In this document: positions 2,566 through 23,285 of the stretch, one piece after another
How positions within the stretch are numbered: position 1 is the stretch's first letter
How the letters are laid out: every line of letters begins with the position of its first letter
Source of the DNA: Thermoplasmata archaeon
GTDB taxonomy: Archaea > Thermoplasmatota > Thermoplasmata > RBG-16-68-12 > JAFNFQ01
Assembly: GCA_041489255.1 (NCBI GenBank)
Contig: JBGPQV010000003.1
Location: forward strand, 53,448 to 77,447
Reading direction: 5' to 3'
DNA length: 24,000 nt
Program-made: the position numbers and the translations under genes
Notes under the pieces: generated by a model
Told to the model about the DNA's origin: nothing
The model's input: only the letters and a program-made list of their open reading frames with translations
Database searches by the model: none

Positions 2566-2665
2566 ACTGATTCCAATCAGCCACATCCATACGGCAAAGT
2601 ATTTTGTCAGGCCGAATATCGGTCGACAAAATGGGACTGCTCCATAGAACTCTTTGTCCGGTCTT

Positions 2666-3672: not shown

Positions 3673-3688
3673 TCAAATCATCTCATGG

Positions 3689-3871: not shown

Positions 3872-3927
3872 CTAACAGGAAATCGATATCCTGTAGAGAC
3901 CCGTCTTTCTGGCCCTCACATGACCAT

Positions 3928-4473: not shown

Positions 4474-4489
4474 CTCTGTCACCGTTTCG

Positions 4490-4794
4490 TCAAAACTGTT
4501 GAACCCATCTTGAGGGGCTTGGGTCTTGTGCCAAGAAATCCATCCTTGACCTAGTTCCGTGGCGGGAGGCAGCATCGCGCTGCAGCTGGAGGTACACCGT
4601 CTTCCTCCTTCCATCCCTTTCAAACTCCCCGAATATCGAACGGCCGATGTTCATTTGACCGCACGGATGGAATGCGCTTGGGGCATTTAAGCCATCATTT
4701 GGAAAGCAGTCAAATCTTTGCGCCCAATCTCTCTTCCATCGATTGGATGCGGTATCGGAGTCGGGCGTACTCGCCGCAGCCGCTCGGCTGCAAT
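4490..4794 (-). other. Possible second orphan toxin-tip remnant (open frame ending at TGA 4490..4492)
   Basis: An open frame ends exactly 16 nt upstream of the paralog-2 ATG, the same spacing as the other two tip/immunity junctions. Its tail ...SRWVQQF only faintly echoes ...NDWRQQI. It has no credible start codon (only TTG at 4816, inside the upstream gene). It cannot be resolved by eye. Confidence 0.25.
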
Positions 4795-5340
4795 TCATAT
4801 CGACGAGAAGAGGCAATTATAGACAGTCGGAGGTCCCGGTTGCCCAGGTGCATTACCTTTCATACTAGGTACTCTTAGGAAGAGAATCGACAATGGCAGC
4901 ACCTCGATGCCTTCATTCCTGAGTTGATTCAGAATGCAGTCGTCCAGCTGTTTCAGTCTGTCGGGCACATTCTCGGGGTGCTGCCACCCTCTTTCCCCGA
5001 GCACACCCCAGTCGAACCTCGCAAGGGGCCGGGCCTTGCTGATGAATATGAAAGCCTCGTAACTGCCCATCGTCTTCTCTTCCGGCTTCGTGCGAGGGTC
5101 CCTCGAAACGGGTTTCAGTCTCGACTCCGAGGTTCGTATCCAGTGGCATATATCGTAGTTCCCGTCTAGCCAATAGTACACGTTCACGCCGCATTCTTCT
5201 CTAATGCGTTGGCATAGTCTCTCCACCTTGGCGCTGTCTCTCATCGTGAACTCGAACTTGGGGTCCATCTTGTCGAAGTCCATCGATGGATACATCTCCC
5301 TTATCAGACGCATTATCTTGTCCGGAATCACGCTCTGCAT
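4795..5340 (-). CDS. Putative cognate immunity protein, paralog 1 (181 aa)
   Basis: ATG at 5338..5340, 16 nt after the giant gene stop (5357..5359). The spacer, read on the minus strand, is TCATGAGATGATCTGA and contains a GAGATGAT SD-like motif. It is a small cytosolic-looking protein and is paralogous to 3127..3672 and 3928..4473. Confidence 0.75.
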   Translation of the reverse strand: MQSVIPDKIMRLIREMYPSMDFDKMDPKFEFTMRDSAKVERLCQRIREECGVNVYYWLDGNYDICHWIRTSESRLKPVSRDPRTKPEEKTMGSYEAFIFISKARPLARFDWGVLGERGWQHPENVPDRLKQLDDCILNQLRNEGIEVLPLSILFLRVPSMKGNAPGQPGPPTVYNCLFSSI

Positions 5341-5356
5341 TCAGATCATCTCATGA

Positions 5357-11300: not shown

Positions 11301-13960
11301 TATAGTTCGACTTCGGCATAATCGAGCAGCAGGTCCCCGTCGGTATCGGGATTGTTCTTATTCAAACCATTCGCGTCCTCCCATTCGTCCCTCAGTTGGT
11401 CACCGTCTGAGTCCAGTTCGATAACGACTATGGCAGTGTCATCGCCAAAGGACCCAGAAGCGTCCGTTGCCGTGAGAGAGACCGTGTATGTCCCAGATAC
11501 TGTGAATGTATGAACGGTATTCGGCATCATTTCGTGAGGGCTGCCGTCGCCGAAGTCCCAGACGAAAGTGAGCGGTTCACCATCATCATCTTCCGCCTCA
11601 GCAGAGAATATTATGGGCGCAGCGGCGCCATGGATTCTCCGATCAGGACCTGCGAACGCAGTTGGCGGAGTGTTCGCGACTCTAATAAGGTGAGTATCAT
11701 AGGACACAAGCCCGTGCTTGTCCGTCACACGGAGGGTAGCCGAGTACTCGCCCCGAGAAGAATACCGATGCATTGTGCGCGAGCCCGAGCCCGTCGAAGA
11801 GTCGCCGAAGAACCAAAGATAGGAGAGGTCGGACAAGTCGTCCTGGCCGTCGGAGGAATGGATGCCGCTGAGTACCGATGCATGCGTCTCTGCTCCTAGG
11901 GAGAGGACCTCAAAGGCGGCATTCGGAGCAACGTTAGAGACCGTAACGCTATGGGTCTTGGTGCTCATGACCCCGTTGTCGTCAGTGACTGTTAGAATCA
12001 CGCCATAGCTTCCTTCCCGCCTGTAGGAATGGGTAGGCGAGACGCCTGAGGCCTTAGCTCCGTCTCCGAACTGCCAATAGTAGTCCAGAGCCGTGCGATC
12101 TGAAGCTGTGTCGGTCGAAAGGGAACCGTCATAGTACACCATCGTGTCCTCATCTACTTGGGAGGGTGTGAATGCGAAGTCAGCGTTCGGCGCCCCATTC
12201 GTCACACTGACACGTCTGCTGTTAGCGCCCCAGTCCCCCTTCCCGTCTGTGACCTTCAGCACTACGGTGTACGTTCCGGCGCGCAAGTACGCATGAGTGG
12301 TCGAGGCGGTGCTCGTGGTGGCCGTCACGCCGTCGCCAAGATCCCAAAAGAAAGATGGAGCCGGCGAGGAGGGCCCGTCGCTGTCCGCGTATATGCCCGT
12401 GAAGGTGAATGTCTGGTCCTCGGCTTTTGTCGCCGCGTTCACGTTGACGGCCGTAATCTCGGGAGCCTTGTTGTCCAGCACCCCGCCCTTGAACGTGCAC
12501 GTGGCAGTGTTCGTGCCCCCATCCCCATCGTCGGCCTTCAGGGTGACGGTGTATGTCGTCTTGGAGGAGGGGAATTTATGCGTCACGTTCCACCACACAC
12601 GGTAGGGGGAAACGTGGCTTGGGTTTGCGAACGTCTGGACAGCGTCAGCGCTCCCGTCCCCGAAGTGCCACGTTAAGGTGAGGGCGTCGGCGCCGACCTC
12701 ATGGGCAATCCCTTTGAGGACGGACGATGTCGCCCCGACGATTGATGCGTACGGCGCGCGGTTCTGCACGGTGACGGTCACGCTGGAAGTGGTAGAAGCC
12801 GAATGAGGATCGGTGACCGCGAGGTTCACCGTCGCGGATGTCTCATCGTACCATACATACGTTGGCCTGCTCCCTGTCATCGATGCACTACCACTCCACG
12901 AATAAGCCAAGGCGTCGGCATCGCTCGACGTATCGGTGGACGCGGTGGCATCGAAGAGCACTGTCTGTGCTTCCGAAACGGTGATTGAATTGCCTGCTGT
13001 TGCCGTCGGCGCTCCGTTGGCGACGTTCACCACATGCTGCGTGGTTGACGTGGCGTCGTTGTCGTCGCGGACGGTAAGCAGAACAGCGAAGTTGCCCGGA
13101 GATGAATACGCATGGGTGATGGTCCTACCTTGGCCATACTGCCCGTCTCCGAAATCCCATGCGAATGTCAGCGGGTGCCTAGTGATGGCGTTGCCCGGCA
13201 AGGCGTTGTCAGTTGCGGTGTCTGTTGAACCCGAGGCGTCGAACGTCACTACAGCATCCATGTATGGACTCGTAGGAGAATAGACGAAAGAGGCAGACGG
13301 ATTGGCATTCACAATGACCACGTTCCGAGTCGCCGTGTCGGCGTTCCCGGCTGCGTCTCGCACGATCAGGTGCACGCGATAGGTTCCTGCGTATCCATAG
13401 GAATGCGTCTCAATGCCTGCAGTGCTCGTTGCCCCGTCACCAAAATCCCATTCGTATCGGAGATCCTCTCGCGGGTATGTGGCCGGCCACGAGGTCGTGG
13501 CATCAAACTGAATGCTCTCGTCCTCCGCCACGCTTGCGGTGTCAGCCGGAGTCGTGAGGATGACTGCCCCGGGAACTCCCCCTGATCCGTAGCTCGGACT
13601 CTTGATGTGGATGCGGATTGTGTCCAGAGCCATCGTCCCAGTCGACTCTTCGGCAACCAAAGCCACGTCGTAAATCCCGTCCGTTGTGAACGAGTGTACA
13701 GGTGAAGGATCCGTCGAAGAGGTGCCGTCTCCGAAAAACCATGTGAAAGATAAGGCATTTCCGGGTTGCCCGGGGCTTGACCCACTTGAGTCAAACTCGA
13801 TGTCTTCTCCCGGATCTGCCGGGTCTGACTCTTCGGTTCCGTCGAGCGCATCCGCCACGGCGACAGGCGGCGGATAGCTCGCCTTGACAAGAGTTGTGGC
13901 GCCTGAGATCACGGTTATAAAGGCCAAAGCCAAAGCCATTAGACTTCTCATCCCGATCAT
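5357..13960 (-). CDS. Giant secreted polymorphic-toxin-like protein (about 2867 aa from ATG 13960)
   Basis: ATG at 13958..13960 is preceded by GAGGAGGA and followed by the signal-like MIGMRSLMALALAFITVISGATTLVKA. A PKD block (approx 11422..13860) has nine W-x-F-G-D-G-type cores. TSP3-like acidic Ca-binding repeats (DTDGDGLPDG, DTDNDGLTDWEE and similar) occupy approx 9385..11421 and 7010..7830. An unassigned module lies at approx 7831..9384. A hydrophobic Gly/Ala-rich segment lies at approx 6050..6640. A distinct C-terminal domain of about 230 aa lies at 5360..6049. The coordinates include the stop codon. Confidence 0.85.
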   Translation of the reverse strand: MIGMRSLMALALAFITVISGATTLVKASYPPPVAVADALDGTEESDPADPGEDIEFDSSGSSPGQPGNALSFTWFFGDGTSSTDPSPVHSFTTDGIYDVALVAEESTGTMALDTIRIHIKSPSYGSGGVPGAVILTTPADTASVAEDESIQFDATTSWPATYPREDLRYEWDFGDGATSTAGIETHSYGYAGTYRVHLIVRDAAGNADTATRNVVIVNANPSASFVYSPTSPYMDAVVTFDASGSTDTATDNALPGNAITRHPLTFAWDFGDGQYGQGRTITHAYSSPGNFAVLLTVRDDNDATSTTQHVVNVANGAPTATAGNSITVSEAQTVLFDATASTDTSSDADALAYSWSGSASMTGSRPTYVWYDETSATVNLAVTDPHSASTTSSVTVTVQNRAPYASIVGATSSVLKGIAHEVGADALTLTWHFGDGSADAVQTFANPSHVSPYRVWWNVTHKFPSSKTTYTVTLKADDGDGGTNTATCTFKGGVLDNKAPEITAVNVNAATKAEDQTFTFTGIYADSDGPSSPAPSFFWDLGDGVTATTSTASTTHAYLRAGTYTVVLKVTDGKGDWGANSRRVSVTNGAPNADFAFTPSQVDEDTMVYYDGSLSTDTASDRTALDYYWQFGDGAKASGVSPTHSYRREGSYGVILTVTDDNGVMSTKTHSVTVSNVAPNAAFEVLSLGAETHASVLSGIHSSDGQDDLSDLSYLWFFGDSSTGSGSRTMHRYSSRGEYSATLRVTDKHGLVSYDTHLIRVANTPPTAFAGPDRRIHGAAAPIIFSAEAEDDDGEPLTFVWDFGDGSPHEMMPNTVHTFTVSGTYTVSLTATDASGSFGDDTAIVVIELDSDGDQLRDEWEDANGLNKNNPDTDGDLLLDYAEVELYGTNPTSDDTDNDGLTDWEELFAGEDTFITDPLNPDMDGDHLSDGLEVGLTDDSPMRASDTLSPPWGYGIVDGVSYGPDSDPLTTTNPTIIDTDGDGLPDGWFDLNSNGLRDVGEYEDRDLDGVVDTGAWDAGSGPGSGPGETNPSQADTDGDGLPDGLEVGLLGIDSDPGTVTDPLRWDTDNDGLPDGWIDFNDDQTRNSGEFEDRNLNGATDAGVWNDGDGPGETNPLDDDSDDDGVKDGEEAVRGSDTYLTNPLDADTDDDGLGDGVETGVPGYDVPDSVTTNPTSIDTDKDGLPDGWVDCGLGASGCLFSWQEPGYDLIGNPDPDHDDYDPATNPQGTEGNGLIDRWESEDKNLDGNIDAEETDPSIADTDGDGLPDGLELGLPEVGDTLDRDIFGIPKRDSDSSTTTNPLDRDTDDDGLWDGTEDVDRDGCVDNIETNPSMRDTDGDHLTDGQEAGLPWPQGYDSLADWQNDGDSQTLGAPSGFVPDEDPTTVTNPLNVDSDSDGLPDGWIDTDSDGIEQGEFEDRDIDGRVDTGSWTGLEGTAETNPNIPDSDNDGLTDSVEQIQTDTNPIQADTEPDGMPDGWEVKYGLLPTYDDSSEYKDGDTLTNLQEYLQNTNPADADTDYDLIPDGLDVRNLEYDIDPDAAANPTLGILLPSDFEPDVIAVNRDLGVSVALDFGMPDPGATVTITEGSQTFTDAGLVGQVIHVETSSAQGYRAVVKISYPEGPVDNLGNPVGEDGLLMYHWDGNGDAGEWVPMKHKYIGEETWRNTAYDYVWSLSGALGDFAMADSFQRDFDADGAKDGTEFGAAAYEEWPKWLCSTNDAGQCATPEVGTYWYTWTLFEDAGGDTGGDTELYLKVPVKKGVLEQVKPVMGWDAPRVVLTFQPHKWSGSHDSNPTFPGLHVPDDGWAGYAAGVPFYISSSDGPQSLITVKVAVAYAIPTGETAWIDLVLGEAASWDLSTGEIGPLASDYAVSSVEVSGALYGWLEFRFDSPVLLEAETTYWMILRMFNGEFYWAASDDARIWANHALLYDVNFFESIDWTTDSGSLVYQMFCVDYPHDVSINIVTSEGDDNPEWKQEGYVSPDAGIPFPWTDHLIVLLDTDAINALLASYPDVDGYQFIPIRFHSSTKGDLLLESILVILGGRDYTPEDLLDSDSDGLSDGIEGLPAYSCLSSTNPDSDGDGILDGSEIDWWVDTDGDSLINACDPDSDGDGLWDGWNDNQGTPNQIWDSGELMGERNYRTSPVLSDTDGDGLWDGWHDTLRNQVWDSGEELGEVGYLGEPNPGGGYGTNPLEPDTDGDGLKDGEEVTGVYGWVTNPLNPDCDGDLLLDGIEILGWDTVMLTSVANVYEMTRILDDTSLPVHAQNMVSEAIRPLFTRYHVTSDPDKKDTDGDGLNDLMEFLQKVDPRKQDSDGDRMKDDIDDEPSVVELVVPYIDLSWSTSLCWEGLKCVHVTIVMSDNVGLGSLITVVDGKEYSNDDLYANIFDTRNKDFSIGFLDAFTGKTVDFYVVDVNGNANHYWLKQDTYFDRARDLLKDLTVKYLGPEVGGMAVGLWDCFSGMFTSIPSIMKNAGSLFDSGASFGHDLLNSGNPGDTLRNALGSLYDALVQQAENANPYDPVPDGDNDPWDMSNDHETFNYWYWIGNIIGMIVTAGAGAAVKGALEAGNIGAMITQALSKLGPLQRIISFAARAYEYFGRCTVKLALAGAIFAGSYALAELFGGFFEEMFANGIGLAGLVLMTKWSADVLGISDDILRGRTKALLRLPEAEVIGFEAAFPDRAIREGVWRSVTKDVIELEPGALERFGAWVRKNGANPLDEGAGADEVLKAWKASGLPDGIAVLKMGDGRFGQFHVIGRHIEGSIVSLDKDITSFFPTGKTITGYPIEKTLPPAMTDAQVWELLRDGLRNTPLGDIKLDTNSGNLIYTYKPHMYGIDEVTIVVRASDGSIISFFPVQGENVWAWIKALNDWRQQI

Positions 13961-14032
13961 CAATGTATCCTCCTCACGTCCCAACAATCCGCTCAATCCA
14001 ATTGAATGGGACGCACGGGGATAACCATCTAG

Positions 14033-14041
14033 CCTTAAATG
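14033..14041 (-). promoter_or_regulatory. TATA-like box candidate for the giant toxin gene
   Basis: The minus strand reads CTAAACATTTAAGG, about 75-80 nt upstream of ATG 13960 and only a few bp from the IS target-site duplication. Motif resemblance is the only evidence. Confidence 0.25.
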
Positions 14042-14045
14042 TTTA

Positions 14046-14053
14046 GTCTCCCG
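14046..14053. repeat. Target-site duplication GTCTCCCG (left copy)
   Basis: The identical 8-mer directly abuts both IS ends (14046..14053 and 15102..15109). Confidence 0.85.
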
Positions 14054-14071
14054 AACTGTGTTGAACAAATC
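14054..14071. repeat. IS terminal inverted repeat (left)
   Basis: AACTGTGTTGAACAAATC. It matches the reverse complement of 15084..15101 at 17/18 positions. Confidence 0.85.
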
Positions 14072-14109
14072 CCGTCTTTTTCTCCCTCCGACCTCCCGAC
14101 CTCCCGCCA

Positions 14110-15033
14110 TCAGGGCATCTGCAGGAGCATCGCGTAGACAGCGAACTTCGCCATGACCTCCCTGTACATCAGGTCGAGCCTCCTCGCCATCACGTTCTCC
14201 CCGAATATCCTCTTCTCGCCGGAGAAGGTCCACTCAGCCGCCCACCTCATCCCATACCCGTGTTTCTCCCTCCAGCCATCGTACCCGAGGGACCTGAGCT
14301 CCCTCACCGCCCTCGGCCTGGCCGATGAGCCCAACGATTTGCAGGTCGCACCAGCCTTGATCCTGATCCCCGCCCCGATTCCTTTGTCCTCCAGGAGCTG
14401 GAAGTTCGCGCGGCTGTCGTAGGCGGCGTCGGCGAGGACCTCCCGTATGCGCCCCTTCCCCAGGGCCCTCTCCGCCTTCTCCAGCAGGGCGGGGAACATC
14501 GTCGTGTCGCCTATCCCCTCGTCGGTAGCTTTCATCGCCACGGGCCCTCCGTCAACGTCCACCGCCAGGTGCACCTTTATCCAGCCCCGGTGGCGGTGCC
14601 ACTTCTCCCTCATCCACTCCCCCCTGTTCGTGACCTTGATTCCCGTGCTGTCGAAGGCGATCACGAACGGCCCGTCACCCTGAGGCGCGGGAATCTCAAG
14701 CTCCATGTCGGCTATCCGCCACCAGAGGGTCGTGTAGTCGGCAGGCCTGACCTTCCCCACGAACTTCGACATGCCGCAGAGGAAGCCCTCCATCTGCCTG
14801 TACTGCATCCTGAGGATCTGCCTGACGGCGGCGAGGAATCGCATCATGCTCTCGGGGAAGCCGTATGGACGCCCCCTCTTCCCGCCGTTCATCGTCCTCA
14901 GTTCGTCTTCCCACGAGTCCAGCCAGTCCATGCTGAGGTACAGCTCCCCCCGCCGGACGAGCCGCTCGTTGTACCCGGGCCAATTCCTCTTATCCTTGTA
15001 GTGCCTTTCACCCTCGCTCGGCATGGGTCCCAT
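14110..15033 (-). CDS. DDE transposase (IS4/IS5 superfamily)
   Basis: The N-terminal RNWPGYNERLVRRGEL motif is typical of IS5-like transposases. Acidic triad candidates lie in VIAFDSTGIKV and LADAAYDS, with the signature Y-x2-R-x3-E-x6-K in YGMRWAAEWTFSGEK. The start of the longest ORF at 15045 is TTG. ATG codons at 15033 and 15024 are more likely starts. Confidence 0.85.
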   Translation of the reverse strand: MGPMPSEGERHYKDKRNWPGYNERLVRRGELYLSMDWLDSWEDELRTMNGGKRGRPYGFPESMMRFLAAVRQILRMQYRQMEGFLCGMSKFVGKVRPADYTTLWWRIADMELEIPAPQGDGPFVIAFDSTGIKVTNRGEWMREKWHRHRGWIKVHLAVDVDGGPVAMKATDEGIGDTTMFPALLEKAERALGKGRIREVLADAAYDSRANFQLLEDKGIGAGIRIKAGATCKSLGSSARPRAVRELRSLGYDGWREKHGYGMRWAAEWTFSGEKRIFGENVMARRLDLMYREVMAKFAVYAMLLQMP

Positions 15034-15083
15034 CCCTGCTGACAAGGCAGGTTCTCATGCCGAGTTCCCACCATCAAACCATC

Positions 15084-15101
15084 GATTTATTCAACACAGT
15101 T
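15084..15101. repeat. IS terminal inverted repeat (right)
   Basis: GATTTATTCAACACAGTT. Its reverse complement matches 14054..14071 at 17/18 positions. Confidence 0.85.
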
Positions 15102-15109
15102 GTCTCCCG
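15102..15109. repeat. Target-site duplication GTCTCCCG (right copy)
   Basis: The identical 8-mer directly abuts both IS ends. Confidence 0.85.
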
Positions 15110-15165
15110 CAAATGGACGGAGTTAAATCGCCTAAAACGCGCTCGATTCGTCCATGTTCCATGCC

Positions 15166-15211
15166 GTCCCCAAAGCCTCCGCCCTGGCGGGCGGGGGCAC
15201 CTTTCCTTTTT
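15166..15211 (+). repeat. GC hairpin plus T-tract element, copy B
   Basis: The sequence is gtccccaaagcctccgccctggcgggcgggggcacctttccttttt. The stem 15176..15184 pairs with 15189..15197 around a 4-nt loop. It aligns with 2666..2714 at roughly 40 of 46 positions by eye, including an identical 18-nt 3' part, ggggcacctttccttttt. Confidence 0.6.
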
Positions 15212-15385
15212 ATGCGGTCTTAGGCTGGAAGTGAGGCTCGTCGAGGGGCTGCCGACTGATGCTGTAGACATGTTGAAGCAGTACCTCGCAGGACAGATCG
15301 GCACGATGGGGCTCGCAACACGACTCGAAGAAATACGCATGAAAGCCGCCACACTGCCGGGCTCGTTTCTCAAGCCATGATTTTG

Positions 15386-15400
15386 TCGATATGATATCGA
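15386..15400. promoter_or_regulatory. Perfect 15-bp palindrome TCGATATGATATCGA upstream of the zinc-ribbon gene (candidate operator)
   Basis: The palindrome was read directly from the sequence. It lies about 10 nt upstream of an A/T-rich TATA-like stretch (AAGTATTTTAT, approx 15408..15418) and about 47 nt upstream of ATG 15447. Confidence 0.3.
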
Positions 15401-15446
15401 GTTTGCAAAGTATTTTATGTCCAGGCGGAGGTAGTAAAGTCACATC

Positions 15447-15869
15447 ATGCCCCCCGAGGAAGAGCGAGAAGGCGAGATGGAGGAACCTCAGGAGCTGGCC
15501 CAAGAACAGGCCCCGGAAGTCCCCGTGGCCCCGCCAAAGCCCGAGTTGCGCATCGTCGACTTCTCGACAAAGAAGATCAATCCGTTCTGCACCGTCTGCG
15601 GTCTCGAGAAGGACAAGTACATGGAGGTCGAGGTCAAGGGAGTGATCGAGTACACATGCAGGGACTGCTACCGCAGGTCGAGGGGCGCGCCCGCCATGCC
15701 TCCGGCGGCGACCTGCAGGAAGTGCGGAACGCCGATGCAGGTGGGCGACAACTTCTGCGGGAAGTGCGGCAACCCCGCGGTGCTCAAGTGCACAGCCTGC
15801 AACAATGAGGTGGAGGAAGAGGACAGGTTCTGCGCGAAGTGCGGGGCGAAGCTATCCTTCGCGGACTAG
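15447..15869 (+). CDS. Triple zinc-ribbon protein with acidic N-terminus (140 aa)
   Basis: ATG at 15447. Three CxxC...CxxC pairs are present: CTVC...CRDC, CRKC...CGKC and CTAC...CAKC, in a double-zinc-ribbon style. The N-terminus MPPEEEREGEMEEPQELAQEQ is Glu-rich. Confidence 0.7.
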   Translation: MPPEEEREGEMEEPQELAQEQAPEVPVAPPKPELRIVDFSTKKINPFCTVCGLEKDKYMEVEVKGVIEYTCRDCYRRSRGAPAMPPAATCRKCGTPMQVGDNFCGKCGNPAVLKCTACNNEVEEEDRFCAKCGAKLSFAD

Positions 15870-16793
15870 CACCGCAGATCCCCTGGGCAGCTTGAATATC
15901 TTCCTTGGCAGCGGGCTCGTCTCGTGCACGCGGAAGCTGCCGAGGTTCGCCTCGAAGCTCTTGACGCCGTCGAGCGAGGTGCTCCCGCCGCCGAGGCTGT
16001 TCCACAGTAGGAACACCACATCGTCCAGTATCTCGTTCTTCACGGCGGTGCGCAGCTCCTCCGCGTTCCCGCCGCGGACGAAGACTATCGGCTCCAGGAT
16101 CATCTCCAGCTCTATCATGGCGGTTGAGCCGGTCTTCGTGATGACCAGGGAGTTCGATTCCGCCCCGCCCTGGAGCGCGGGCACCTCGATCGTGTTCGTG
16201 TCCTTCTTGACCCTGAGGCCATCGCCCCGCAGGTCCCTCTCGACGAGCGCGAGCATCTCCTGCTCCAGGTAGCCGGGCACGAAGTCGACTCTGGGCAGGG
16301 TCGTCTCCCGCCTCAGGCTGAAAGCGAGCGGGCAGCGGTAGGACTTCATCTCCTCCTTGTAGGATATCGATTCGACGATCTCCGGCTTCACCGGTTGCGC
16401 GCCGTCCCTGAGCACGAAGAACTCCGTGTCCGTCCCGTCCGTCACCACGCTCAGGTAGTTCTCGTGGCGGGAGGCTCTGGACTTGAGGGTGCTGTCGTCA
16501 GTCGCGCTGTGGAACACCGCGTGATCTGTCTCGTCCCTGAAGGGATGGCTGTGGAAGATGCCGACGATGCCCACGTTCCTGGGGTACTGCATCGCCAGCT
16601 CGACCTCCTCCCTCGCGTCCGCATGCGCGCCGTATCTGCTCTGCGACTTGTACCTGGTGCAGGGGACCGAGTCGCAGACCCAGACCTCGCTCCTCCCGAA
16701 GAAGCCGAGGAGCCAGCCGATCGTCTCGACGCCTCTCGACCGCGCGACCTCGTTCACGTGGATGTTGATCTTTCGCAGCGCGCTCCGCTGCAT
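15852..16793 (-). CDS. JAMM/MPN+ metallopeptidase with an uncharacterised C-terminal domain (313 aa from ATG 16793)
   Basis: JAMM signature: the Glu in VETIGWLLGF, then GIFHSHPFRDETDHAVFHSATD (H-x-H...S-x-x-D, codons approx 16497..16553). ATG at 16791..16793 lies 14 nt after the E1 stop. A GTG overlapping the E1 stop (GTGA) is an alternative start. The last ~200 aa match no family I recognise. Confidence 0.8.
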   Translation of the reverse strand: MQRSALRKINIHVNEVARSRGVETIGWLLGFFGRSEVWVCDSVPCTRYKSQSRYGAHADAREEVELAMQYPRNVGIVGIFHSHPFRDETDHAVFHSATDDSTLKSRASRHENYLSVVTDGTDTEFFVLRDGAQPVKPEIVESISYKEEMKSYRCPLAFSLRRETTLPRVDFVPGYLEQEMLALVERDLRGDGLRVKKDTNTIEVPALQGGAESNSLVITKTGSTAMIELEMILEPIVFVRGGNAEELRTAVKNEILDDVVFLLWNSLGGGSTSLDGVKSFEANLGSFRVHETSPLPRKIFKLPRGSAVLVREG

Positions 16794-16807
16794 GCGCACG
16801 CTGACCG

Positions 16808-17563
16808 TCACTTCGCACCACCGCAGACCGGGCACTTGGGGTCCCGCTTCCAGTTGTACCTCTGCATCTTCCCCTCCAGGCCATAATAGAGGATGTAAGG
16901 CGCGACTTTGCCGAAGCCAAGGAGGTACTTCAGCGCTTCCTGACACTGCAGGCTCGCGATGATGCCCATGGTTGTGGGAAGCGAAGTGAAGTGGCATGCG
17001 CCGTCTCCGGATTTCTTCAGGTCCGTTGTGCTGTCATCCTTCAAGGCGGGTTTGTTGCAGCGGTAACAGGGCGTCTTGCCGGGGATGATCGAATGCACGG
17101 AGCCGTTGATTCCGTCAAGGGAGGCTCCGCCGTCGATGAGGGGGACCTTCAGCCTCACGCACAGGGAATTAAGGAACAAGCGGACGTGGAACGAGTCGAC
17201 GCATCCGAGGACGAGGTCGGACTCCCTCGCCTCCTTCAGGAGGGCGTCGTAACCCTTGCCGTCGGTGACGTCGTTGGGATAGGTGAGAAGCTCAACGTCG
17301 GAGTTCGCCGCGAGGAGGTACTCCCTGAGCGCGTCCACCTTGAACATGCCTACCTGGTGAGTCCTGTAGATCAGCCTGTTCAGGTTCGCTTCCTCGAGCT
17401 TGTCGAAGTCGAATATCGTCAGGCGCCCGATGCCGCAGCGCGTCATGATCTCCGCGCAGGTCGCGCCGAGGCCGCCGACGCCGACGACGGTCACCTTCTT
17501 CTCCTTCAGCTTCGAGAAGTCCGCGAACGGGAAGATCTTGAGGCGGGCGTATCGCTCAGTCAA
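16808..17563 (-). CDS. UBA5-like E1 (ThiF/MoeB-type adenylation domain, 251 aa)
   Basis: VTVVGVGGLGATCAEIMTRCGIGRLTIFDFDKLEEANLNRL compares with human UBA5 [41 protein letters not shown] (recalled from memory). GACHFTSLPTTMGIIA compares with GVCAASLPTTMGVVA, placing the catalytic Cys candidate at Cys190 (codon 16994..16996). Zn-site pairs are CYRC and CPVC. The start is TTG at 17561..17563, preceded by GAGGGGGAAGGG. Confidence 0.9.
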   Translation of the reverse strand: MTERYARLKIFPFADFSKLKEKKVTVVGVGGLGATCAEIMTRCGIGRLTIFDFDKLEEANLNRLIYRTHQVGMFKVDALREYLLAANSDVELLTYPNDVTDGKGYDALLKEARESDLVLGCVDSFHVRLFLNSLCVRLKVPLIDGGASLDGINGSVHSIIPGKTPCYRCNKPALKDDSTTDLKKSGDGACHFTSLPTTMGIIASLQCQEALKYLLGFGKVAPYILYYGLEGKMQRYNWKRDPKCPVCGGAK

Positions 17564-18026
17564 GCCATCCCTTCCCCCTCATGTCCTTGACCACGCTCTG
17601 CACCCAGTAAGAGACTTCCCTCTTCAGGTAGAGCGCGATGCTGCAGTAGTCGTCCCACCAGTAGTTCTGTTCCATGTGCATGTCGCAGAGCCTCAGCCCG
17701 AGCACGCCATCGTCCACCTTGCGGTCGGTGTAGTTCATCAGCTCGGGAATGCGGCAGGCGGGAGGCGTCTGCGGGTAGGCGTCCTTCAGGACGAGCTCTA
17801 TGTCCCAGGAGTGCGGGCCGTCGAAGACCGTGCCGGTCCAACTAGTCGCCTTGTCCCCCGTCGGGCTGAGGCTGAACCATTTCCCGCCTTCTAGAAACCT
17901 CAGGTACTCCTCGAACCTCCTGAGGGCGTACCTCTCCTCCTTCGCCCTCACGCGCCAGGTTTCGTCCCGCGGCGAAGCTACGGTCGCGCACTGGAGGAAG
18001 TAGAAGAGGTCGTCTTCCTTGGCCAT
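17556..18026 (-). CDS. UFC1-like E2 (UBC fold, 156 aa)
   Basis: Four blocks are colinear with human UFC1 (recalled from memory). SPRDETWRVRAKEERYAL matches GPRDRELWVQRLKEEYQSL. WFSLSPTGDKATSWTG matches WFRLESNKEGTRWFG. WDIELVLKDAYPQTPPACRIPEL matches [29 protein letters not shown] matches KICLTDH, giving a Cys114 candidate (codon 17685..17687). There is no HPN tripeptide before the Cys, as in UFC1. ATG at 18024..18026. Confidence 0.85.
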   Translation of the reverse strand: MAKEDDLFYFLQCATVASPRDETWRVRAKEERYALRRFEEYLRFLEGGKWFSLSPTGDKATSWTGTVFDGPHSWDIELVLKDAYPQTPPACRIPELMNYTDRKVDDGVLGLRLCDMHMEQNYWWDDYCSIALYLKREVSYWVQSVVKDMRGKGWLD

Positions 18027-18029
18027 GCC

Positions 18030-18275
18030 TCACCCGACGATCGAGGGGTCTATCACGTGGATGTTGGTGCTCCTCTCCGCGATCTCCTTCACCGTGCCGC
18101 CTGGGATCGGCGAGCCGCCGGGGAAGGTCGCGCTGAGCACCGTCGCGTCCTTGTTCTGCCTCTTCGCGGCTAGGACGAAGGCTTCCTGGAAGAGCATGTC
18201 GTCGGGGACCTTGAGGGTGACCACGGGCTTCTCGGCTTCACTTATGAAGATAAAACGCAGGACGACTTGGGGCAT
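18030..18275 (-). CDS. UFM1-like ubiquitin-fold modifier ending in Val-Gly (81 aa)
   Basis: VVTLKVPDDMLFQEAFVLAAKRQNKDATVLSATFPGGSPIPGGTVKEIAERSTNIHVIDPSIVG-stop is colinear with human UFM1 [65 protein letters not shown] (recalled from memory). ATG at 18273..18275 is preceded by AGGTG. Only 3 nt separate its stop from the E2 ATG. Confidence 0.8.
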   Translation of the reverse strand: MPQVVLRFIFISEAEKPVVTLKVPDDMLFQEAFVLAAKRQNKDATVLSATFPGGSPIPGGTVKEIAERSTNIHVIDPSIVG

Positions 18276-18305
18276 GAGGCACCTGGGTTTGCCATGCTGG
18301 GCGCG

Positions 18306-18313
18306 ATATTAAG
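18306..18313 (-). promoter_or_regulatory. TATA-like box candidate (CTTAATAT) for the Ubl-E2-E1-JAMM operon
   Basis: It lies in the 56-nt gap between the upstream surface-protein gene stop (18332) and the Ubl ATG (18275), 31-38 nt upstream of the ATG. Motif resemblance is the only evidence. Confidence 0.3.
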
Positions 18314-18331
18314 GGTTTGTGGTGAGGCGTC

Positions 18332-21076
18332 TCATTGCGGTCCGGTTGGCGGCGGGCGGGGAGGCTGTGTCTTGGATTGTCCCTGATTCGCGTTTTCTTT
18401 TCGGCGACGTTTCATTGTGACGAGGGCCAGAATGACGATAATGACGGCGACAATGGTGGTGGCGAGGAGCCACCAATACTGAATGATGATTTCGAAGAGT
18501 GATGCACTGATCGTGAAGGGGTTGCTTTGCGCCCAACCCTTCATCCCTCCCGTATCTATCACAGTGATGTTCATGACTACATCGTCCGCCTCGATATCCG
18601 GGAGAGTCCATTGGTAATTCTCCTGTCCTTTGAGGGCTTGCGCAACAGAATATGTGATTCCTCCCGTCGAGTAGTTCAGATACACGATGAGGTTTGCATC
18701 TGCATCTTCGTTGTCCTGCATGGACCATGAGATAGTGTGGTCGGAGCCTTTCTCCCAATGCTCGCCACCGGTCGGCGAGGTCATAGTGACAGACGGGGAA
18801 GCGTTCGGCGTGAAGTTCAGCTTGACGACAAACACATCATACGCCGCGTCCAGTGTATCCTTGAAAGCGTGCGGTGTAACAGGGAAGTCCGCCGATCCTG
18901 TGCAACCCGCCACATAGGCGTTGCCCTCAAGGTCCAGGGCGATTGATTCGGGGCGATCGTAGTCGTTGCCGCCCAGATATGTTCCGTAGATGAGAGCGTC
19001 CCCACTTGTGTTGAGTTTCGCGACGAATCCATCCTCGGATGTGTGGGGATTTGTGTCCAATGCACCTGGGGTGACGGGGAAGTCCGGCGAGTTGGTGTAG
19101 CCTGCCACATAGGCATTTCCCGCTGAATCCAGAGCTATCGAAAACCCATATTCGTCTTGTTCGCCGCCAAGAAGAGTCGAGTAGACCAGCGAACTGCCCG
19201 TCTCTTCAAGCTTTAGGACGAACGCATTTGCGCGTGAATTGTGAACTGACTCCTGGAAAGCGCCCGCGGTGACGGGGAAATCATACGAACCCGAGTGGCC
19301 TGTTATATAGACACTCCCGAAGGGGTCCACGGCGATGGATCTGCCTTCATCCCAATCATCGCCGCCGATGTAGGTTCCGAAAACCAAAGGACCTCCTATT
19401 GTGTCGAGCTTCACGACGAACGCGTCCTGCTCGCCACCCCAGGTTTCGTCGAAAGATCCTGATGTAACGGGGAAGTCGGGCGAATTCGCTGCACCGGTCA
19501 CAAAGGCATTTCCGGCAGAGTCGACTGCAATCGAATGAGCCCATTCGAATTCGCCACTGCCGCCGAAATAGGTTGCATAGAGCAGAGAGTCGCACGTCGG
19601 GTCCAGTTTCGCGACAAAGAGGTCATCCGCCCCATTCATGGCGATGTCGTATGCATTTGATGTGACGGGGAAGTCGCTAGAATTCGTCCATCCGGCTACA
19701 TAGGCATTTCCAGAGGAGTCAACTGCAACAGAGACGCCGTATTCAGCACCGCCACCGCCAAGAAAAGTCGAATAGAAAAGTGTATCTCCTGTCGGACCGA
19801 GCTTGGCTAGGAATGCGTCAGACGTTCCATTTAGAGTCGTGTCGAAAATGCCCGAGGTCACTGGGAAATCCGAGGATTCTGTCCGGCCGGTCAGGTAGGC
19901 ATATCCAGCGGAGTCCAAGGTTATAGAGCCGCTTGACTCTCCAGAGCTGCCCCCCAGATAAGTTCCATAGACGAGGGAGCCCCCGTCTGAGCTTAGCTTC
20001 ACCACGAGTATATCCCTAGAACCGTCGAACGTAGTGTCGAATGCGCCGGGGGTAACAGGGAAGTCCGGAAAAGTAGTTTCAAGCGCTACGTACGCGTGTC
20101 CGGTCGAGTCCACGGCAATGGCATCACGGATGGTCAGCATAGGAGTGCCACCGAGAAACGTCGCGTACACCAAAGGATCTATTATCAGAGGGGCGAAATC
20201 ATCGATGCCAGCACAGCCCAAGCCATAAGATTCACCCGTATGGAGTGTAAAAAAGCAGTCCACTGGTCTACCCTGTTGATATGCGATGGGGGCCGTGTCT
20301 CTGATGTCCCCTACGGCGGTGTGGATTAGGATATCACCCTTCGAATCTGACGAAAGGCCGAGTATTCCCTCATAGGACATGACGATGGTCCCCGGGTTTT
20401 TTCCGGGATCGAGTGCAAGATCGTATTTCACGCCATTTTCTGTCATGCGATAGATCAGATCAATGCCGTCGTACAGATCATCGTAGGCTATCTCTCGGAA
20501 ACTCTTCACGTTTTGTCGCCACTTGGCCGGATCGCTTCCGATGAAGAAGTTGCTCATGAAAGACAATGGTTCGCGGCCTTTCGGCACGACCGTGTTCGCG
20601 CCCCCGAAGCTCAGGCGGACAAGTGCACCCTGAGGGGCGGCTTCTTGAGAAGAAGAGCGCAAGGAGAATTCCTCTATAGAAGGCTCAATGGCGGGCGTAG
20701 GCTCCCTCTCGACCATCTTGATCAGGACTGAACTCTCCCCGAAGCCCATCTGGACGTCACCAAGGTCCGTGTAAAAGAGTACGTCCCGATTGTCGAGCTG
20801 CCCTGCATTCTCCACAAAATAACCGGCGGGCAATGATGTCATCGTCCCCTTTAGCCCTGCCTGGATTTGAGCACCTGAATTGTTCATTCCTCCAGTGTCT
20901 CGCGACGTTGCAGGCAACAGGCTGGCAAGCAACATCGCGCAGCAGAAGACTACGCCAAATCGCAAGCATTCCCGACTTGGTCTCTCCGTGGAACCACCAG
21001 ACGGTCGATGTAGCAGGCGACTGATAAACATTCGGGACGGAACGATGCGCCTGATTGCCCGGTCCAGAAGATTCAC
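18332..21076 (-). CDS. Cell-surface seven-repeat SBBP beta-propeller protein with C-terminal membrane anchor
   Basis: There are seven repeats of the form D-S-x-G-N-A-Y-V-x-G-x-T-x-S-x-D-F-P-V-T-x-G-A-F-D (for example DSSGNAYVAGWTNSSDFPVTSNAYD). The N-terminus has a hydrophobic segment, FGVVFCCAMLLASLLPA. The C-terminus has a TM helix, WWLLATTIVAVIIVILALV, followed by KRRRK. The longest-ORF start at 21076 is GTG, and ATG 21031 is an alternative. Confidence 0.8.
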   Translation of the reverse strand: MNLLDRAIRRIVPSRMFISRLLHRPSGGSTERPSRECLRFGVVFCCAMLLASLLPATSRDTGGMNNSGAQIQAGLKGTMTSLPAGYFVENAGQLDNRDVLFYTDLGDVQMGFGESSVLIKMVEREPTPAIEPSIEEFSLRSSSQEAAPQGALVRLSFGGANTVVPKGREPLSFMSNFFIGSDPAKWRQNVKSFREIAYDDLYDGIDLIYRMTENGVKYDLALDPGKNPGTIVMSYEGILGLSSDSKGDILIHTAVGDIRDTAPIAYQQGRPVDCFFTLHTGESYGLGCAGIDDFAPLIIDPLVYATFLGGTPMLTIRDAIAVDSTGHAYVALETTFPDFPVTPGAFDTTFDGSRDILVVKLSSDGGSLVYGTYLGGSSGESSGSITLDSAGYAYLTGRTESSDFPVTSGIFDTTLNGTSDAFLAKLGPTGDTLFYSTFLGGGGAEYGVSVAVDSSGNAYVAGWTNSSDFPVTSNAYDIAMNGADDLFVAKLDPTCDSLLYATYFGGSGEFEWAHSIAVDSAGNAFVTGAANSPDFPVTSGSFDETWGGEQDAFVVKLDTIGGPLVFGTYIGGDDWDEGRSIAVDPFGSVYITGHSGSYDFPVTAGAFQESVHNSRANAFVLKLEETGSSLVYSTLLGGEQDEYGFSIALDSAGNAYVAGYTNSPDFPVTPGALDTNPHTSEDGFVAKLNTSGDALIYGTYLGGNDYDRPESIALDLEGNAYVAGCTGSADFPVTPHAFKDTLDAAYDVFVVKLNFTPNASPSVTMTSPTGGEHWEKGSDHTISWSMQDNEDADANLIVYLNYSTGGITYSVAQALKGQENYQWTLPDIEADDVVMNITVIDTGGMKGWAQSNPFTISASLFEIIIQYWWLLATTIVAVIIVILALVTMKRRRKENANQGQSKTQPPRPPPTGPQ

Positions 21077-21170
21077 TCGGGTTATTGTTGATGGCGACGT
21101 TCATCTGGGAATGCGAAGGCATATGTCCGACTATCGACATTCGAATTCAATCATTTGGAGGCAGTCGAAC

Positions 21171-23090
21171 ATGGCATTAACCAATTCGCCGCGAATCGAG
21201 TCGCTGTTATCCGCCCGCTTGTTCATGGACCCCCAGGTCGTCGGGAACCGCATCTTCTTCATCAGCAATATGAGCGGCCAGATGAGCCTCTACGCGATGG
21301 ACCGTGGCGGGAGCGTCCCCGAGCCGCTCATCCCGCCGGACATCGCCATGCAGAACCCGATGCTCATCGGCGGCTACTCCTATTGCGTGCTCCCCAAGCT
21401 CGGCAAGATAGTCCTCATGCTCGATCGGCATGGAGACGAGAACTACCAGCCAGTGGTCGTCCCCATCGATGGCGGCTATCCGGAACCGATCTTCAGCAAT
21501 GAGCTTGCGGATAAGCGCGTTCACATGGACGCGCCGGACATGAAACGGAACATCGTTTACTTCCCGACGGAGTCACGCAAGGAGCAGATGATCTACACCT
21601 ACCAGGCAGACCTCAGGAGGATGAAGTTGCGGCTCATGGGGAAGGGCACTTGGGGGCCATGGCTTGACACCGCAAACGAGACGCACGACAGAGCCGTCCT
21701 CATCGACGGGTACACGGCGGCGGATAACGTGCTCTACCTGTGGGAGAAGGGGGCGAAAGAGCGCAGGCTGCTGTACGGCAAGCCGATCGAGGAACGAAAG
21801 GAGGGTGAGATTGTCCCCTTGAACGGCATCAGCAATAGTCAGTTCATAGAGGACGACCGAGGCCTCATCTTCATCACGTATCTGTTCGACGACGCTGGCG
21901 GGCTCGGGTACATCGACCTTGCGAAACCCGAGAAGATAACGCCCGTGGCGGTGAAAGGGACTGTCCACGAAGGGAGAGGAATGCTCGAGTCTCTGCATCA
22001 TCTCGAAGAGGACCGGTATTCGCTGTGCTACAACATCGACGGGTGCTCATGGCTATATGAAGGGACGTACCACACCGCCGCCAAGGAGATGAGGATTGAA
22101 GCTACCGTGTGCGGCACCGTAGGACTATCCAGCGGGATGCTGCAGTCTCACCGTTATGATAAGGCAAGGAAGCGTTGGGCTCTCACATACTCTACCGCCA
22201 CATCGCCGGCTCAGATCTACACGGTCGAGGGGAAGGAACGCAAGGTGACGAGGCAGACGAACGAGCGAGTCCTCGCAATCCCGCCGGAACTGCTCTCACC
22301 GGGCGAGGATGCGTCGTATGAGTCGTTCGACGGCACTCGCGTTTCTGCACGTCTCTACCATCCCCCCGCCTCGCTCGGTTTCGAGGGAATGCGGCCGCTC
22401 GTCTACTACGTACATGGAGGGCCGCAGAGCCAGGAGAGGCCTGACTTCGCTTGGTTCTCAATGCCCCTGATACAGTTCCTCGCAATGAACGGGTTCGCCA
22501 TATTCGTGCCCAATGTCAGGGGGAGCTCGGGGTACGGGCTGAACTACATGAAGCAGGTGGACAAGGACTGGGGCGGGAAGGACAGGCTGGACCACGTGCA
22601 CGCGATGACGAAGGTGCTGCCCAAGGACAGGAGGCTGGACGTGTCGAGGGCGGCGGTGGTCGGCCGCTCATATGGCGGCTACATGACGCTGACTTTGGCA
22701 GCGAGGCACCCGGACCTCTGGGCAGCGGCCTGCGACATGTTCGGTCCGTACGACCTGATCAAGTTCTACGACAGGATTCCGGAGACATGGAAACCCACTT
22801 TCGCTCTGACGATGGGGGATCCGGTGAAGGACCGCGATTTCTTCATCGAGCGGTCTCCGAAGACATACATCGAGAACGTCTCGTGCCCCCTTCTCGTCAT
22901 CCAGGGCAAGAACGACCCCAGGGTCGTGGAGAAGGAATCGATGGATCTAGTTGAACAGCTGCGTTCGAAGGGGAAGGATGTGGAGTTCCTTGTGTTCGAG
23001 GATGAGGGGCATGACGTCATCAAGTTCCCCAACAAGGTCAGGTGCTACAACACGATCAAGGAGTTCTTCACGAGTAGATTGAAGCCGTGA
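21171..23090 (+). CDS. S9-family (prolyl oligopeptidase / acylaminoacyl-peptidase type) serine peptidase, 639 aa
   Basis: ATG 21171 is preceded by GGAGG at 21157..21161. The N-terminal region looks like a beta-propeller. The C-terminal alpha/beta-hydrolase domain carries the nucleophile motif GRSYGGYM, Asp in QGKNDPRV and His in DEGHDV. Confidence 0.9.
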   Translation: MALTNSPRIESLLSARLFMDPQVVGNRIFFISNMSGQMSLYAMDRGGSVPEPLIPPDIAMQNPMLIGGYSYCVLPKLGKIVLMLDRHGDENYQPVVVPIDGGYPEPIFSNELADKRVHMDAPDMKRNIVYFPTESRKEQMIYTYQADLRRMKLRLMGKGTWGPWLDTANETHDRAVLIDGYTAADNVLYLWEKGAKERRLLYGKPIEERKEGEIVPLNGISNSQFIEDDRGLIFITYLFDDAGGLGYIDLAKPEKITPVAVKGTVHEGRGMLESLHHLEEDRYSLCYNIDGCSWLYEGTYHTAAKEMRIEATVCGTVGLSSGMLQSHRYDKARKRWALTYSTATSPAQIYTVEGKERKVTRQTNERVLAIPPELLSPGEDASYESFDGTRVSARLYHPPASLGFEGMRPLVYYVHGGPQSQERPDFAWFSMPLIQFLAMNGFAIFVPNVRGSSGYGLNYMKQVDKDWGGKDRLDHVHAMTKVLPKDRRLDVSRAAVVGRSYGGYMTLTLAARHPDLWAAACDMFGPYDLIKFYDRIPETWKPTFALTMGDPVKDRDFFIERSPKTYIENVSCPLLVIQGKNDPRVVEKESMDLVEQLRSKGKDVEFLVFEDEGHDVIKFPNKVRCYNTIKEFFTSRLKP

Positions 23091-23285
23091 GTGATCGTGG
23101 CCTGATCGCTGGCCAGACAGACCCGCTCTGAACCCCGCTGTGAACCGCCATCCTGACAAGGTTCTCTCGGCAGCGGATCGTCCATTGAGCCTACAGTTGA
23201 TCCGGCAAGAAGATACATCGGGTGGATGCCCATCTTCGAGGTTTATTGTCAGACTCTCCGGGCAGACCGGCCCAGCACGAATATG

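Follow-up and report, generated by a model that had tools for sequence, protein, structure and literature searches.

We analyzed a stretch of 24,000 nucleotides (nt) from a Thermoplasmata archaeon (assembly GCA_041489255.1, contig JBGPQV010000003.1, positions 53,448 to 77,447; the whole stretch is called the window below) and found that four adjacent genes on its minus strand encode a UFM1-like ubiquitin-like protein (Ubl), a UFC1-like conjugating enzyme (E2), a UBA5-like activating enzyme (E1) and a JAMM metalloprotease. In our estimate, the probability that they represent a functional, chromosomal UFM1-type Ubl conjugation module of a Thermoplasmata-type archaeon is roughly 80%. The assignment rests on the homology or fold of the four proteins, the conservation of their catalytic residues, gene order and purifying selection, all of which could be directly demonstrated. 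An earlier interpretation of the DNA made without database searches (the sequence-only reading) had likened the first three proteins to UFM1, UFC1 and UBA5, and had named profile and structure searches as the test that could refute this. In these searches, the three proteins fell with UFM1, UFC1 and UBA5, and not with sulfur carrier systems or generic UBC enzymes.

Four genes in a conserved operon

The four open reading frames (ORFs), at 15852-18275 on the minus strand, are all intact and have the coordinates given in the sequence-only reading. The Ubl gene (18030-18275, 81 amino acids (aa), C-terminus ...DPSIVG) is followed by the E2 gene (17556-18026, 156 aa), the E1 gene (16808-17563, 251 aa, TTG start) and the JAMM gene (15852-16811). 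As had been claimed, the Ubl and E2 genes are separated by only 3 nt (the sequence reads TGA-ggc-ATG), and the E2 and E1 genes have 8 nt, TTGACTGA, in common. A gap of 14 nt had been reported between the E1 and JAMM genes. This is arithmetically right for the ATG at 16793, which would give a JAMM protein of 313 aa, but the real junction is probably a 4-nt overlap. We prefer the in-frame GTG at 16811 as the probable start, because it overlaps the E1 stop codon as GTGA, because GGTGGT precedes it, and because its product (319 aa, N-terminus VTVSVRMQRS) agrees with the homologues, which have 318-319 aa and MxVxVxxQR N-termini. All genes of the operon are intron-less, and their start and stop codons overlap or abut.

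Reading the sequence upstream of the operon, we noted a Shine-Dalgarno-like AGGTG 5 nt ahead of the Ubl ATG, and a TATA-box-like TTAATAT (18306-18312, minus strand) about 34 nt upstream of the same ATG, which is a candidate promoter of the operon. A scan for sigma-70 promoters and intrinsic terminators was uninformative, as the underlying model does not apply to archaea.

The order Ubl-E2-E1-JAMM on one strand was kept in 33 out of 33 related loci, wherever the contig and unmasked sequence allowed the comparison. All of these loci are from metagenome-assembled genomes (MAGs) of Thermoplasmata type and lie on independent contigs, including four complete chromosomes. The four genes thus form a conserved neighbourhood, which had been the second test proposed in the sequence-only reading.

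For the comparisons that follow, AlphaFold2 (AF2) structure models were made for the Ubl and the JAMM protein, while E2 and E1 were compared by sequence. The motifs that had been quoted for the latter two are all present (RLCDMH in the E2; TRCGIG..L.IFDFDKLEEANLNRL, SLPTTMG, a preceding Cys and two CxxC pairs in the E1).

The modifier has a UFM1-like fold and ends in Val-Gly

As a single sequence, the Ubl had no match in Pfam (E ≤ 1), PDB or NCBIfam searches, and therefore a family profile and a structure model were needed to link it to UFM1. The AF2 model (predicted local distance difference test score (pLDDT) 90.6) has a beta-grasp structure of UFM1 type. When it was compared with the PDB using Foldseek, the best 12 matches were all UFM1 chains (TM-score (TM) 0.78-0.86, root-mean-square deviation (rmsd) 1.3-1.9 Å), compared to TM 0.65-0.70 and rmsd 2.5-3.1 Å for SUMO and ubiquitin. 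MoaD, ThiS and SAMP were absent from the top 50 matches. In the structural alignments, the Ubl is 18-21% identical to eukaryotic UFM1. Alignment of the Ubl family with human UFM1 by hhalign gave a probability of 66% (E = 5.5e-5), versus 0.2% for ubiquitin.

The C-terminal Val-Gly (V80-G81) is invariant in the Ubl family (68 clusters). Most members end at this point, and a few homologues have C-terminal tails of 1-6 aa beyond it, among them HP, QP and SPRPRP. Together, the model and the C-terminus argue that the Ubl is a UFM1-like ubiquitin-fold modifier, which would be encoded in its mature form.

The E2 is a predicted member of the UFC1 family

The E2 exceeds the gathering cutoff of the Pfam family UFC1 (PF08694; 36.3 bits versus 25, E = 5.5e-9), and nearly all of its 95 homologues carry the same domain. 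The UFC1 label of Pfam is already precomputed for these E2s in public databases. In the PDB, UFC1 chains alone were significant matches, both for the single sequence (2.5e-6) and for the family profile (2.4e-8), compared to E ≥ 0.13 for UBC9. Alignment with a eukaryotic UFC1 profile by hhalign gave a probability of 99.0% (E = 5.4e-18).

As the sequence-only reading had pointed out, the likeness extends to the surroundings of the catalytic Cys and to the absence of an HPN motif from the E2 sequence. In a profile built from 19 family members, positions 15-155 align with residues 20-161 of human UFC1, which places LGLRICDMH opposite GGKICLTDH and Cys114 of the E2 in register with the catalytic Cys116 of UFC1. 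Cys114 is nearly invariant and is embedded in the motif LGLRxCDMHME. Across the clade, the E2s are 57-97% identical. From these comparisons, we assign the E2 to the UFC1 family.

The E1 is most similar to UBA5

The E1 contains a ThiF domain (Pfam, 6.5e-52). Its best match in the PDB was human UBA5 (4e-48, 167 bits; 36% identity over 239 aa), ahead of MoeB (9e-31, 110 bits) and ThiF (1e-22, 84 bits). The E1 stays below all NCBIfam cutoffs (MoeB, 129 versus 266; UbaA, the E1 of the SAMP system, 103 versus 450). The proposed likeness to UBA5 was upheld in that UBA5 outscored MoeB, ThiF and the SAMP E1, and in that the catalytic Cys and the zinc-site Cys residues are kept. In the alignment, the Cys of GACHFTSLPTTMG falls on that of UBA5 GVCAASLPTTMG, the position of Cys250 in UBA5. 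The E1s of the 33 loci share, without exception, the GxGGLG motif, the Cys of CH..SLPTTM and CyRC, the first zinc-site pair; the second zinc-site pair, CxxC, is conserved in at least 80% of them. We classify the E1 as UBA5-type; its predicted catalytic Cys is part of the adenylation domain, and it has a putative zinc site of four Cys residues.

The window E1 consists of the adenylation domain only and ends 3 residues past the second CxxC pair. The E1s of one subclade (L001, L025-L032) are longer, with an insert of about 20 aa ahead of the catalytic Cys and an amphipathic C-terminal tail of 22-45 aa, for example KKLEEIEKAAEMFDKMT, which the window E1 does not have. This tail may resemble the UFC1-binding helix at the C-terminus of human UBA5. 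A PDB search with the tail for such a helix returned only chance matches and gave no support.

The metalloprotease resembles Rpn11-type deubiquitinases

The JAMM domain makes up the N-terminal part of the protein (about 130 aa) and is fused to a conserved C-terminal domain of about 190 aa. All 28 members of the JAMM family have JAB or Prok-JAB matches in Pfam, the window protein with a score just under the cutoff (22.9 versus 25). The metal-binding motif HSH...S-x-x-D had been recognized in the sequence-only reading and is present; E23, H81, H83, S96 and D99 are invariant in the 28 sequences. The AF2 model has a pLDDT of 86.8. For the first ~150 residues of this model, Foldseek returned Rpn11, CsRpn11, the bacterial Ubl-deubiquitinase 8tyx (the second-best match), CSN5 and AMSH. 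CsRpn11 also ranked first when the JAMM family profile was searched against PDB sequences (E = 0.005). With its invariant E, HxH, S and D residues, the enzyme looks active, and the fold of the model matches that of Rpn11-type deubiquitinases.

For the C-terminal ~190 aa, neither a Pfam family nor a convincing structural match by Foldseek was found. Its invariant residues are E254, D257, L284, G285, P296 and K298. The JAMM protein also aligned with the Caenorhabditis elegans UfSP (5xda; 348-353 columns, TM 0.32-0.44, rmsd 9-14 Å). We considered a specific kinship of the two proteins and rejected it, judging the similarity to be that of the generic MPN fold. No ODR4-like Pfam match was found in the JAMM family.

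Selection on the module and a zinc-ribbon companion gene

In the closest relative (JAFNFQ010000029.1), the module has 95.8% DNA identity. The ratios of nonsynonymous to synonymous divergence (pN/pS) between the two genomes were 0.045 for the Ubl, 0.058 for the E2, 0.070 for the E1 and 0.104 for the JAMM gene. The four operon genes are thus under strong purifying selection. The DNA common to the two genomes consists of a five-gene block (15405-18324) and two outer segments. As the block is common to both genomes while its flanks are inserted, the five-gene module is the conserved unit; it is native and not mobile. The GC content is about 0.62 in the operon, about 0.61 in the syntenic flank and 0.52-0.56 in the largest inserted segment.

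The fifth gene of this block (15447-15869, plus strand, 140 aa; pN/pS 0.27) is convergent to the JAMM gene and overlaps it by 18 nt at its 3' end. Its product has three zinc ribbons (Pfam Zn_Ribbon_1, 1.6e-13; DZR, 8.9e-12) and an N-terminus that is acidic and rich in Pro; its Cys pairs and a CG..K..Y motif are invariant. Of the 33 related loci, 21 have this gene in convergent orientation to the JAMM gene, and a divergent subclade (L030, L031, L033) is without it. Among the proteins encoded nearby, we favour the zinc-ribbon protein as a candidate adaptor, receptor or substrate of the system, and have also considered an E3-like (ligase) role. An element TATTTTAT (15411-15418) lies about 30 nt upstream of the zinc-ribbon gene.

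Distribution of the E2 family and related Asgard clusters

We searched 1.84 billion representative proteins with a hidden Markov model of the E2 family (threshold E ≤ 1e-3). The 41 matches belong to three groups only: the Thermoplasmata-type clade, Asgard archaea and eukaryotes. In the first group, the MAGs with E2 homologues are named Thermoplasmata, Thermoplasmatota, Methanomassiliicoccales or, as a catch-all, 'Methanobacteriota archaeon', and the system was found in only about 30 species-level genomes. The four complete-chromosome MAGs that were recovered have one matching locus each (L001, L016, L026, L029). The complete MAGs have the accessions CP070726, CP070767, CP070739 and CP070751. 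In the Asgard group, the E2s have an ICHDHM motif, and the named members are from Heimdall-, Loki- and Promethearchaeota. In a crude, unrooted neighbour-joining tree of the E2s, the three groups form separate clades at mutual distances of 0.80-0.83. As these distances are similar, the Thermoplasmata-type clade is not nested in the sampled Asgard diversity.

Two Asgard loci (L034, Heimdallarchaeota WJIK01000029.1; L035, JAHLWK010000068.1) hold an E1-JAB-E2 module. Their ThiF-type E1 is UBA5-like and 42% identical to the window E1, their Prok-JAB proteins (377-403 aa) match the profile of the window JAMM protein at 99% probability, and their UFC1-like E2s match the window E2 family at 98.9% (both by hhalign). 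L034 has two copies of the UFC1-like E2 and a separate 91-aa Ubl ending in RGDVG-LL, and in L035 the Ubl is fused to the N-terminus of the E2. The window Ubl profile has no sequence similarity to the 91-aa Ubl (hhalign probability 0.9%). The clusters adjoin Band_7/SPFH genes and, in L034, also EAP30 (ESCRT-II-like) genes. No E3 could be recognized in either cluster.

Several side observations concern the Asgard-type proteins. Five of them (P0274, P0276, P0277, P0278, P0287) are natural fusions in which a Ufm1-like Ubl, ending in DVG, GVG or EAG, precedes a UFC1-like E2. Two UFC1-like E2s (P0280, P0302) are without the catalytic Cys, similar to ubiquitin E2 variants. A Lokiarchaeota protein of 866 aa (P0291, MBN1800750.1, named SIR2 family protein in its source) has a UFC1-like domain at residues 604-751. 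Proteins of about 370 aa near the Asgard clusters gave weak C-terminal zinc-ribbon matches.

Proposed mechanism and competing explanations

We infer the biochemical steps of the system from the linkage of the genes and from the homology and conserved catalytic residues of their products; its targets, the absence of an E3 and its physiological role are likewise deduced. The 81-aa modifier would be synthesized in mature form, its C-terminal Val-Gly exposed from the start. The UBA5-like E1, which presumably forms a homodimer as UBA5 and MoeB do, would use ATP to adenylate Gly81, bind the modifier through a thioester at the Cys of GACHFTSLPTTMG, and hand it to Cys114 of the UFC1-like E2. The E2 would transfer it to lysines of target proteins, either E3-free or via a factor that is not recognizable here, and the zinc-ribbon protein and the C-terminal domain of the JAMM protein are local candidates for partner or target recognition. 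The JAMM enzyme would reverse the modification, expose Val-Gly where the modifier has a short tail, and take the place of the Cys proteases UFSP1 and UFSP2. Among the window ORFs scanned with Pfam, there was no UFL1, DDRGK1, CDK5RAP3 or UFSP-type Cys protease, in agreement with the sequence-only reading, which had remarked on the JAMM enzyme in place of UfSP and on the lack of a visible E3.

Several observations weigh against a UFM1-type conjugation module. One of them is the missing UFL1, DDRGK1 and CDK5RAP3 in the window, as human UFC1 depends on an E3 of this type. The window E1 is also without the C-terminal UFM1-interacting (UIS) and UFC1-binding (UBS) sequences of UBA5, so that recognition must differ from the trans-binding of UBA5. 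At the sequence level, the link between Ubl and UFM1 appears only moderate. UFM1 was the sole match of the Ubl family profile in the PDB, with E = 1.1 (hmmsearch), and the Ubl itself had no match to the Pfam family Ufm1 (PF03671). Of the proposed likeness of the Ubl to UFM1, the fold and the Val-Gly end were borne out, and membership in the Pfam family was not. In the JAMM protein, the spacer between HxH and Ser is non-canonical (12 residues in the window protein and 22 in another subclade, versus 7), and the segment of the model with the zinc-binding Ser and Asp (residues 91-102) is of low confidence. Finally, the flanks of the module vary between genomes and include an insertion sequence (IS), as is also seen around accessory or conflict systems.

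The last point leads to the competing explanation that we consider the strongest, even if improbable, namely that the operon serves antiviral defence or conflict in the manner of Bil or CBASS (cyclic oligonucleotide-based antiphage signaling system) Cap2/Cap3. Upon infection, structural proteins of the virus, or a host effector, would receive the Ubl, with the JAMM enzyme regulating or resetting the system. The component set is that of bacterial Bil operons, the second-best structural match of the JAMM domain is the bacterial complex 8tyx, and the E1 matches the 'E1-E2' (Cap2) models of PADLOC through its ThiF domain (8e-26). The variable flanks with IS and inserted DNA, and the small number of genomes with the system, would fit as well. 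Against this, PADLOC returned nothing for the Ubl, E2 and zinc-ribbon protein and a JAB match of only 4e-4, and E1 and E2 are separate proteins of UBA5 and UFC1 type instead of Cap2-like fusions. A scan of viral contigs with the E2 found no relatives. Within the clade, the gene order is fixed, the E2s are highly conserved, and each of the four complete-chromosome MAGs has just one locus. The pN/pS values of 0.05-0.10 also speak against a conflict system, and the variable DNA is inserted beside the module and not in the module proper. In other genomes, the operon has genes for tRNA and rRNA modification as neighbours. The sequence-only reading had left the choice between a housekeeping and a conflict system open, and the evidence leans to the former and disfavours the latter. 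The lack of PADLOC families for Ubl, E2 and zinc-ribbon protein, the lack of viral relatives, the fixed order, purifying selection and the housekeeping-type neighbours all argue against a defence role, and we consider housekeeping protein modification the most likely physiological role.

A sulfur carrier system (MoaD/MoeB, ThiS/ThiF, Urm1 or SAMP), in which the Ubl would form a thiocarboxylate for cofactor synthesis or tRNA thiolation and conjugation would be absent or secondary, appears very unlikely. It would explain a minimal E1 of ThiF fold with the size and a zinc site like that of MoeB (the second-best PDB match), its lack of a UBA5-specific C-terminal tail, and a modifier whose C-terminal Gly is free from the outset, as in MoaD and the SAMPs. 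It would not explain the E2 with its (nearly) invariant Cys or the JAMM isopeptidase, both of which are co-transcribed and co-conserved with the other genes, as neither serves sulfur transfer. MoaD, ThiS, SAMP1/2 and Urm1 end in Gly-Gly. The Ubl ends in Val-Gly, and its model matches UFM1 and had no MoaD, ThiS or SAMP among the top 50. In addition, there is no rhodanese domain and there are no molybdenum cofactor or thiamine genes in the window (Pfam), and the E1 is far under the NCBIfam cutoffs for MoeB, ThiF and UbaA. The co-conservation of E2 and JAMM, the UFM1 fold and the Val-Gly terminus all argue against a pure sulfur carrier role.

Recent transfer from a eukaryote, or eukaryotic contamination of the assemblies, which could be suspected because three of the four proteins have their closest characterized relatives in eukaryotes, is effectively refuted by the low identities (36% for the E1 and 18-21% in structural alignments for the Ubl), the intron-less genes that overlap in an operon, the 33 independent archaeal contigs with their four complete chromosomes, the JAMM enzyme in place of UFSP, and the position of the E2s in a clade of their own, apart from those of eukaryotes and of Asgard archaea.

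Relation to known systems

The operon joins the known prokaryotic Ubl-E1-E2-JAB operons (Caldiarchaeum, Bil) and the known UFM1 pathway. With the eukaryotic pathway, it shares the UFM1 fold and Val-Gly of the Ubl, UBA5 as the nearest solved structure to the E1, and an E2 that is UFC1 at the Pfam level. The genes here are in an operon, the Ubl is mostly without a propeptide and, in the window, too divergent for the Pfam Ufm1 model, and the E1 is an adenylation domain only. Where the eukaryotic pathway has a C78 Cys protease, there is an apparently active JAMM enzyme, and where it has UFL1-DDRGK1-CDK5RAP3, none of which was seen in the window, the zinc-ribbon protein is the conserved companion. 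The Asgard clusters have the UBA5-like E1, a JAMM protein of the same subfamily, a UFC1-like E2 and a VG-type Ubl in common with the window. They differ in phylum, gene order, the ICHDHM motif of the E2, the frequent fusion of Ubl and E2, and the Band_7 and ESCRT-II-like neighbours.

The ubiquitin operon of Caldiarchaeum subterraneum (PMC3082918, PMC6043591) also combines an archaeal Ubl, E1, E2 and JAMM/Rpn11-like peptidase. In contrast to the operon described here, it has a ubiquitin-like Gly-Gly modifier, a canonical UBC E2, a Uba1-like E1 and a RING E3; no RING protein is present here. Bacterial Bil operons have the same four components, a parallel already drawn in the sequence-only reading, and the window JAB protein resembles 8tyx. 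The window module differs from Bil and CBASS Cap2/Cap3 by the UFC1-type E2, by the lack of a defence-model match for Ubl and E2, and by the lack of an effector or cGAS-like partner. It is also absent from viral contigs, highly conserved and apparently vertically kept. The haloarchaeal SAMP/UbaA/HvJAMM1 system is similar in being archaeal Ubl conjugation with a minimal MoeB-like E1, a JAMM isopeptidase and a modifier in mature form. It differs in having no E2 and in SAMPs that end in Gly-Gly and double as sulfur carriers, and the window E1 is far from UbaA (103 versus a cutoff of 450).

UFM1, UFC1 and UFSP2 have been described as exclusive to eukaryotes, with UBA5 relatives in archaea and bacteria, and with UFL1 and DDRGK1 in Asgard archaea (Picchianti et al., EMBO J 2023, PMC10183829). 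More recently, Ufm1 homologues were reported for Asgard archaea and stated to be found in no other prokaryote (Nat Microbiol 2026, PMC12962969). In open-access papers and bioRxiv, we found neither an archaeal UFC1 nor a UFM1 system from Thermoplasmata described; an earlier description is possible. The operon differs from the known kinds in that it combines UFM1-, UFC1- and UBA5-type parts with a JAMM enzyme, has no recognizable E3, and is found outside Asgard archaea and eukaryotes. The core of a tagging pathway that had been credited to eukaryotes, and lately to Asgard archaea, thus also exists in an unrelated archaeal lineage, and the field in which the origin of the UFM1 pathway can be sought is wider.

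A more far-reaching idea, which we put forward tentatively and consider rather doubtful, is that the core of UFMylation is an archaeal invention beyond Asgard. The operon would then be a minimal form, E3-independent or assisted by the zinc-ribbon protein, with an active JAMM de-UFMylase of which ODR4 would be a relic. In eukaryotic deconjugation, the MPN-fold pseudoenzyme ODR4 is a partner of UFSP2, and the two are fused in the C. elegans UfSP (PMC10952357). The descent of ODR4 from an ancestral JAMM de-UFMylase is speculative, as its support is generic MPN-fold similarity in the model. If the idea were true, the 'Asgard provenance' of Ufm1 would have to be revised in favour of an older archaeal origin or inter-phylum transfer.

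In the operon itself, a JAMM enzyme stands in the presumed role of the UFM1 protease, which bears on the question of the ancestral peptidase. The operon also offers a minimal bench system, as it has neither an E3 nor an E1 tail and encodes just four or five proteins, all small and soluble. Such a system could show how a UFC1-type E2 works in the absence of UFL1 and which targets came first, for instance whether uL24 or the ribosome was already among them.

Genomic surroundings

Compared to the closest relative (L004), the window has two insertions. The first (2538-15404, 12.9 kb) separates segments that are 725 bp apart in the relative. It contains three small ORFs without a Pfam family, a 2958-aa PKD-repeat protein and one IS of about 1048 bp (14054-15101), which is bounded by terminal inverted repeats of 18 nt (14054-14071 and 15084-15101, 94% complementary) and encodes a DDE_Tnp_1 transposase on the minus strand (14110-15045). 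The listed start of the giant PKD ORF (14233) falls inside the IS, so that the gene may have been disrupted at its 5' end or had this end replaced by the IS. The second insertion (18325-23260, about 4.9 kb) encodes a 914-aa SBBP beta-propeller/DUF7948 protein with a transmembrane-like C-terminal tail and a 736-aa protein of the S9 prolyl-oligopeptidase family. The listed 5' ends of these two genes overlap divergently by about 200 nt, and the true starts are therefore probably further in.

The sequence-only reading had placed the operon beside an island of toxin, immunity and IS genes. The IS is present, but the neighbours are surface-type proteins with PKD and SBBP repeats and an S9 peptidase, and not toxins. 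We rejected the toxin/immunity island, as the 2958-aa neighbour consists of PKD repeats, the small ORFs have no Pfam family, and the region is inserted relative to the closest genome.

In two loci with Methanomassiliicoccales names (L002, L003), the operon is followed, at a distance of about 5 kb downstream, by a gene for an eRF1-family protein (15203-16438, minus strand; matches to eRF1_1/2/3, baeRF_family10 and acVLRF1). This neighbour is probably coincidental, but deserves mention in view of the link between UFM1 and ribosome quality control.

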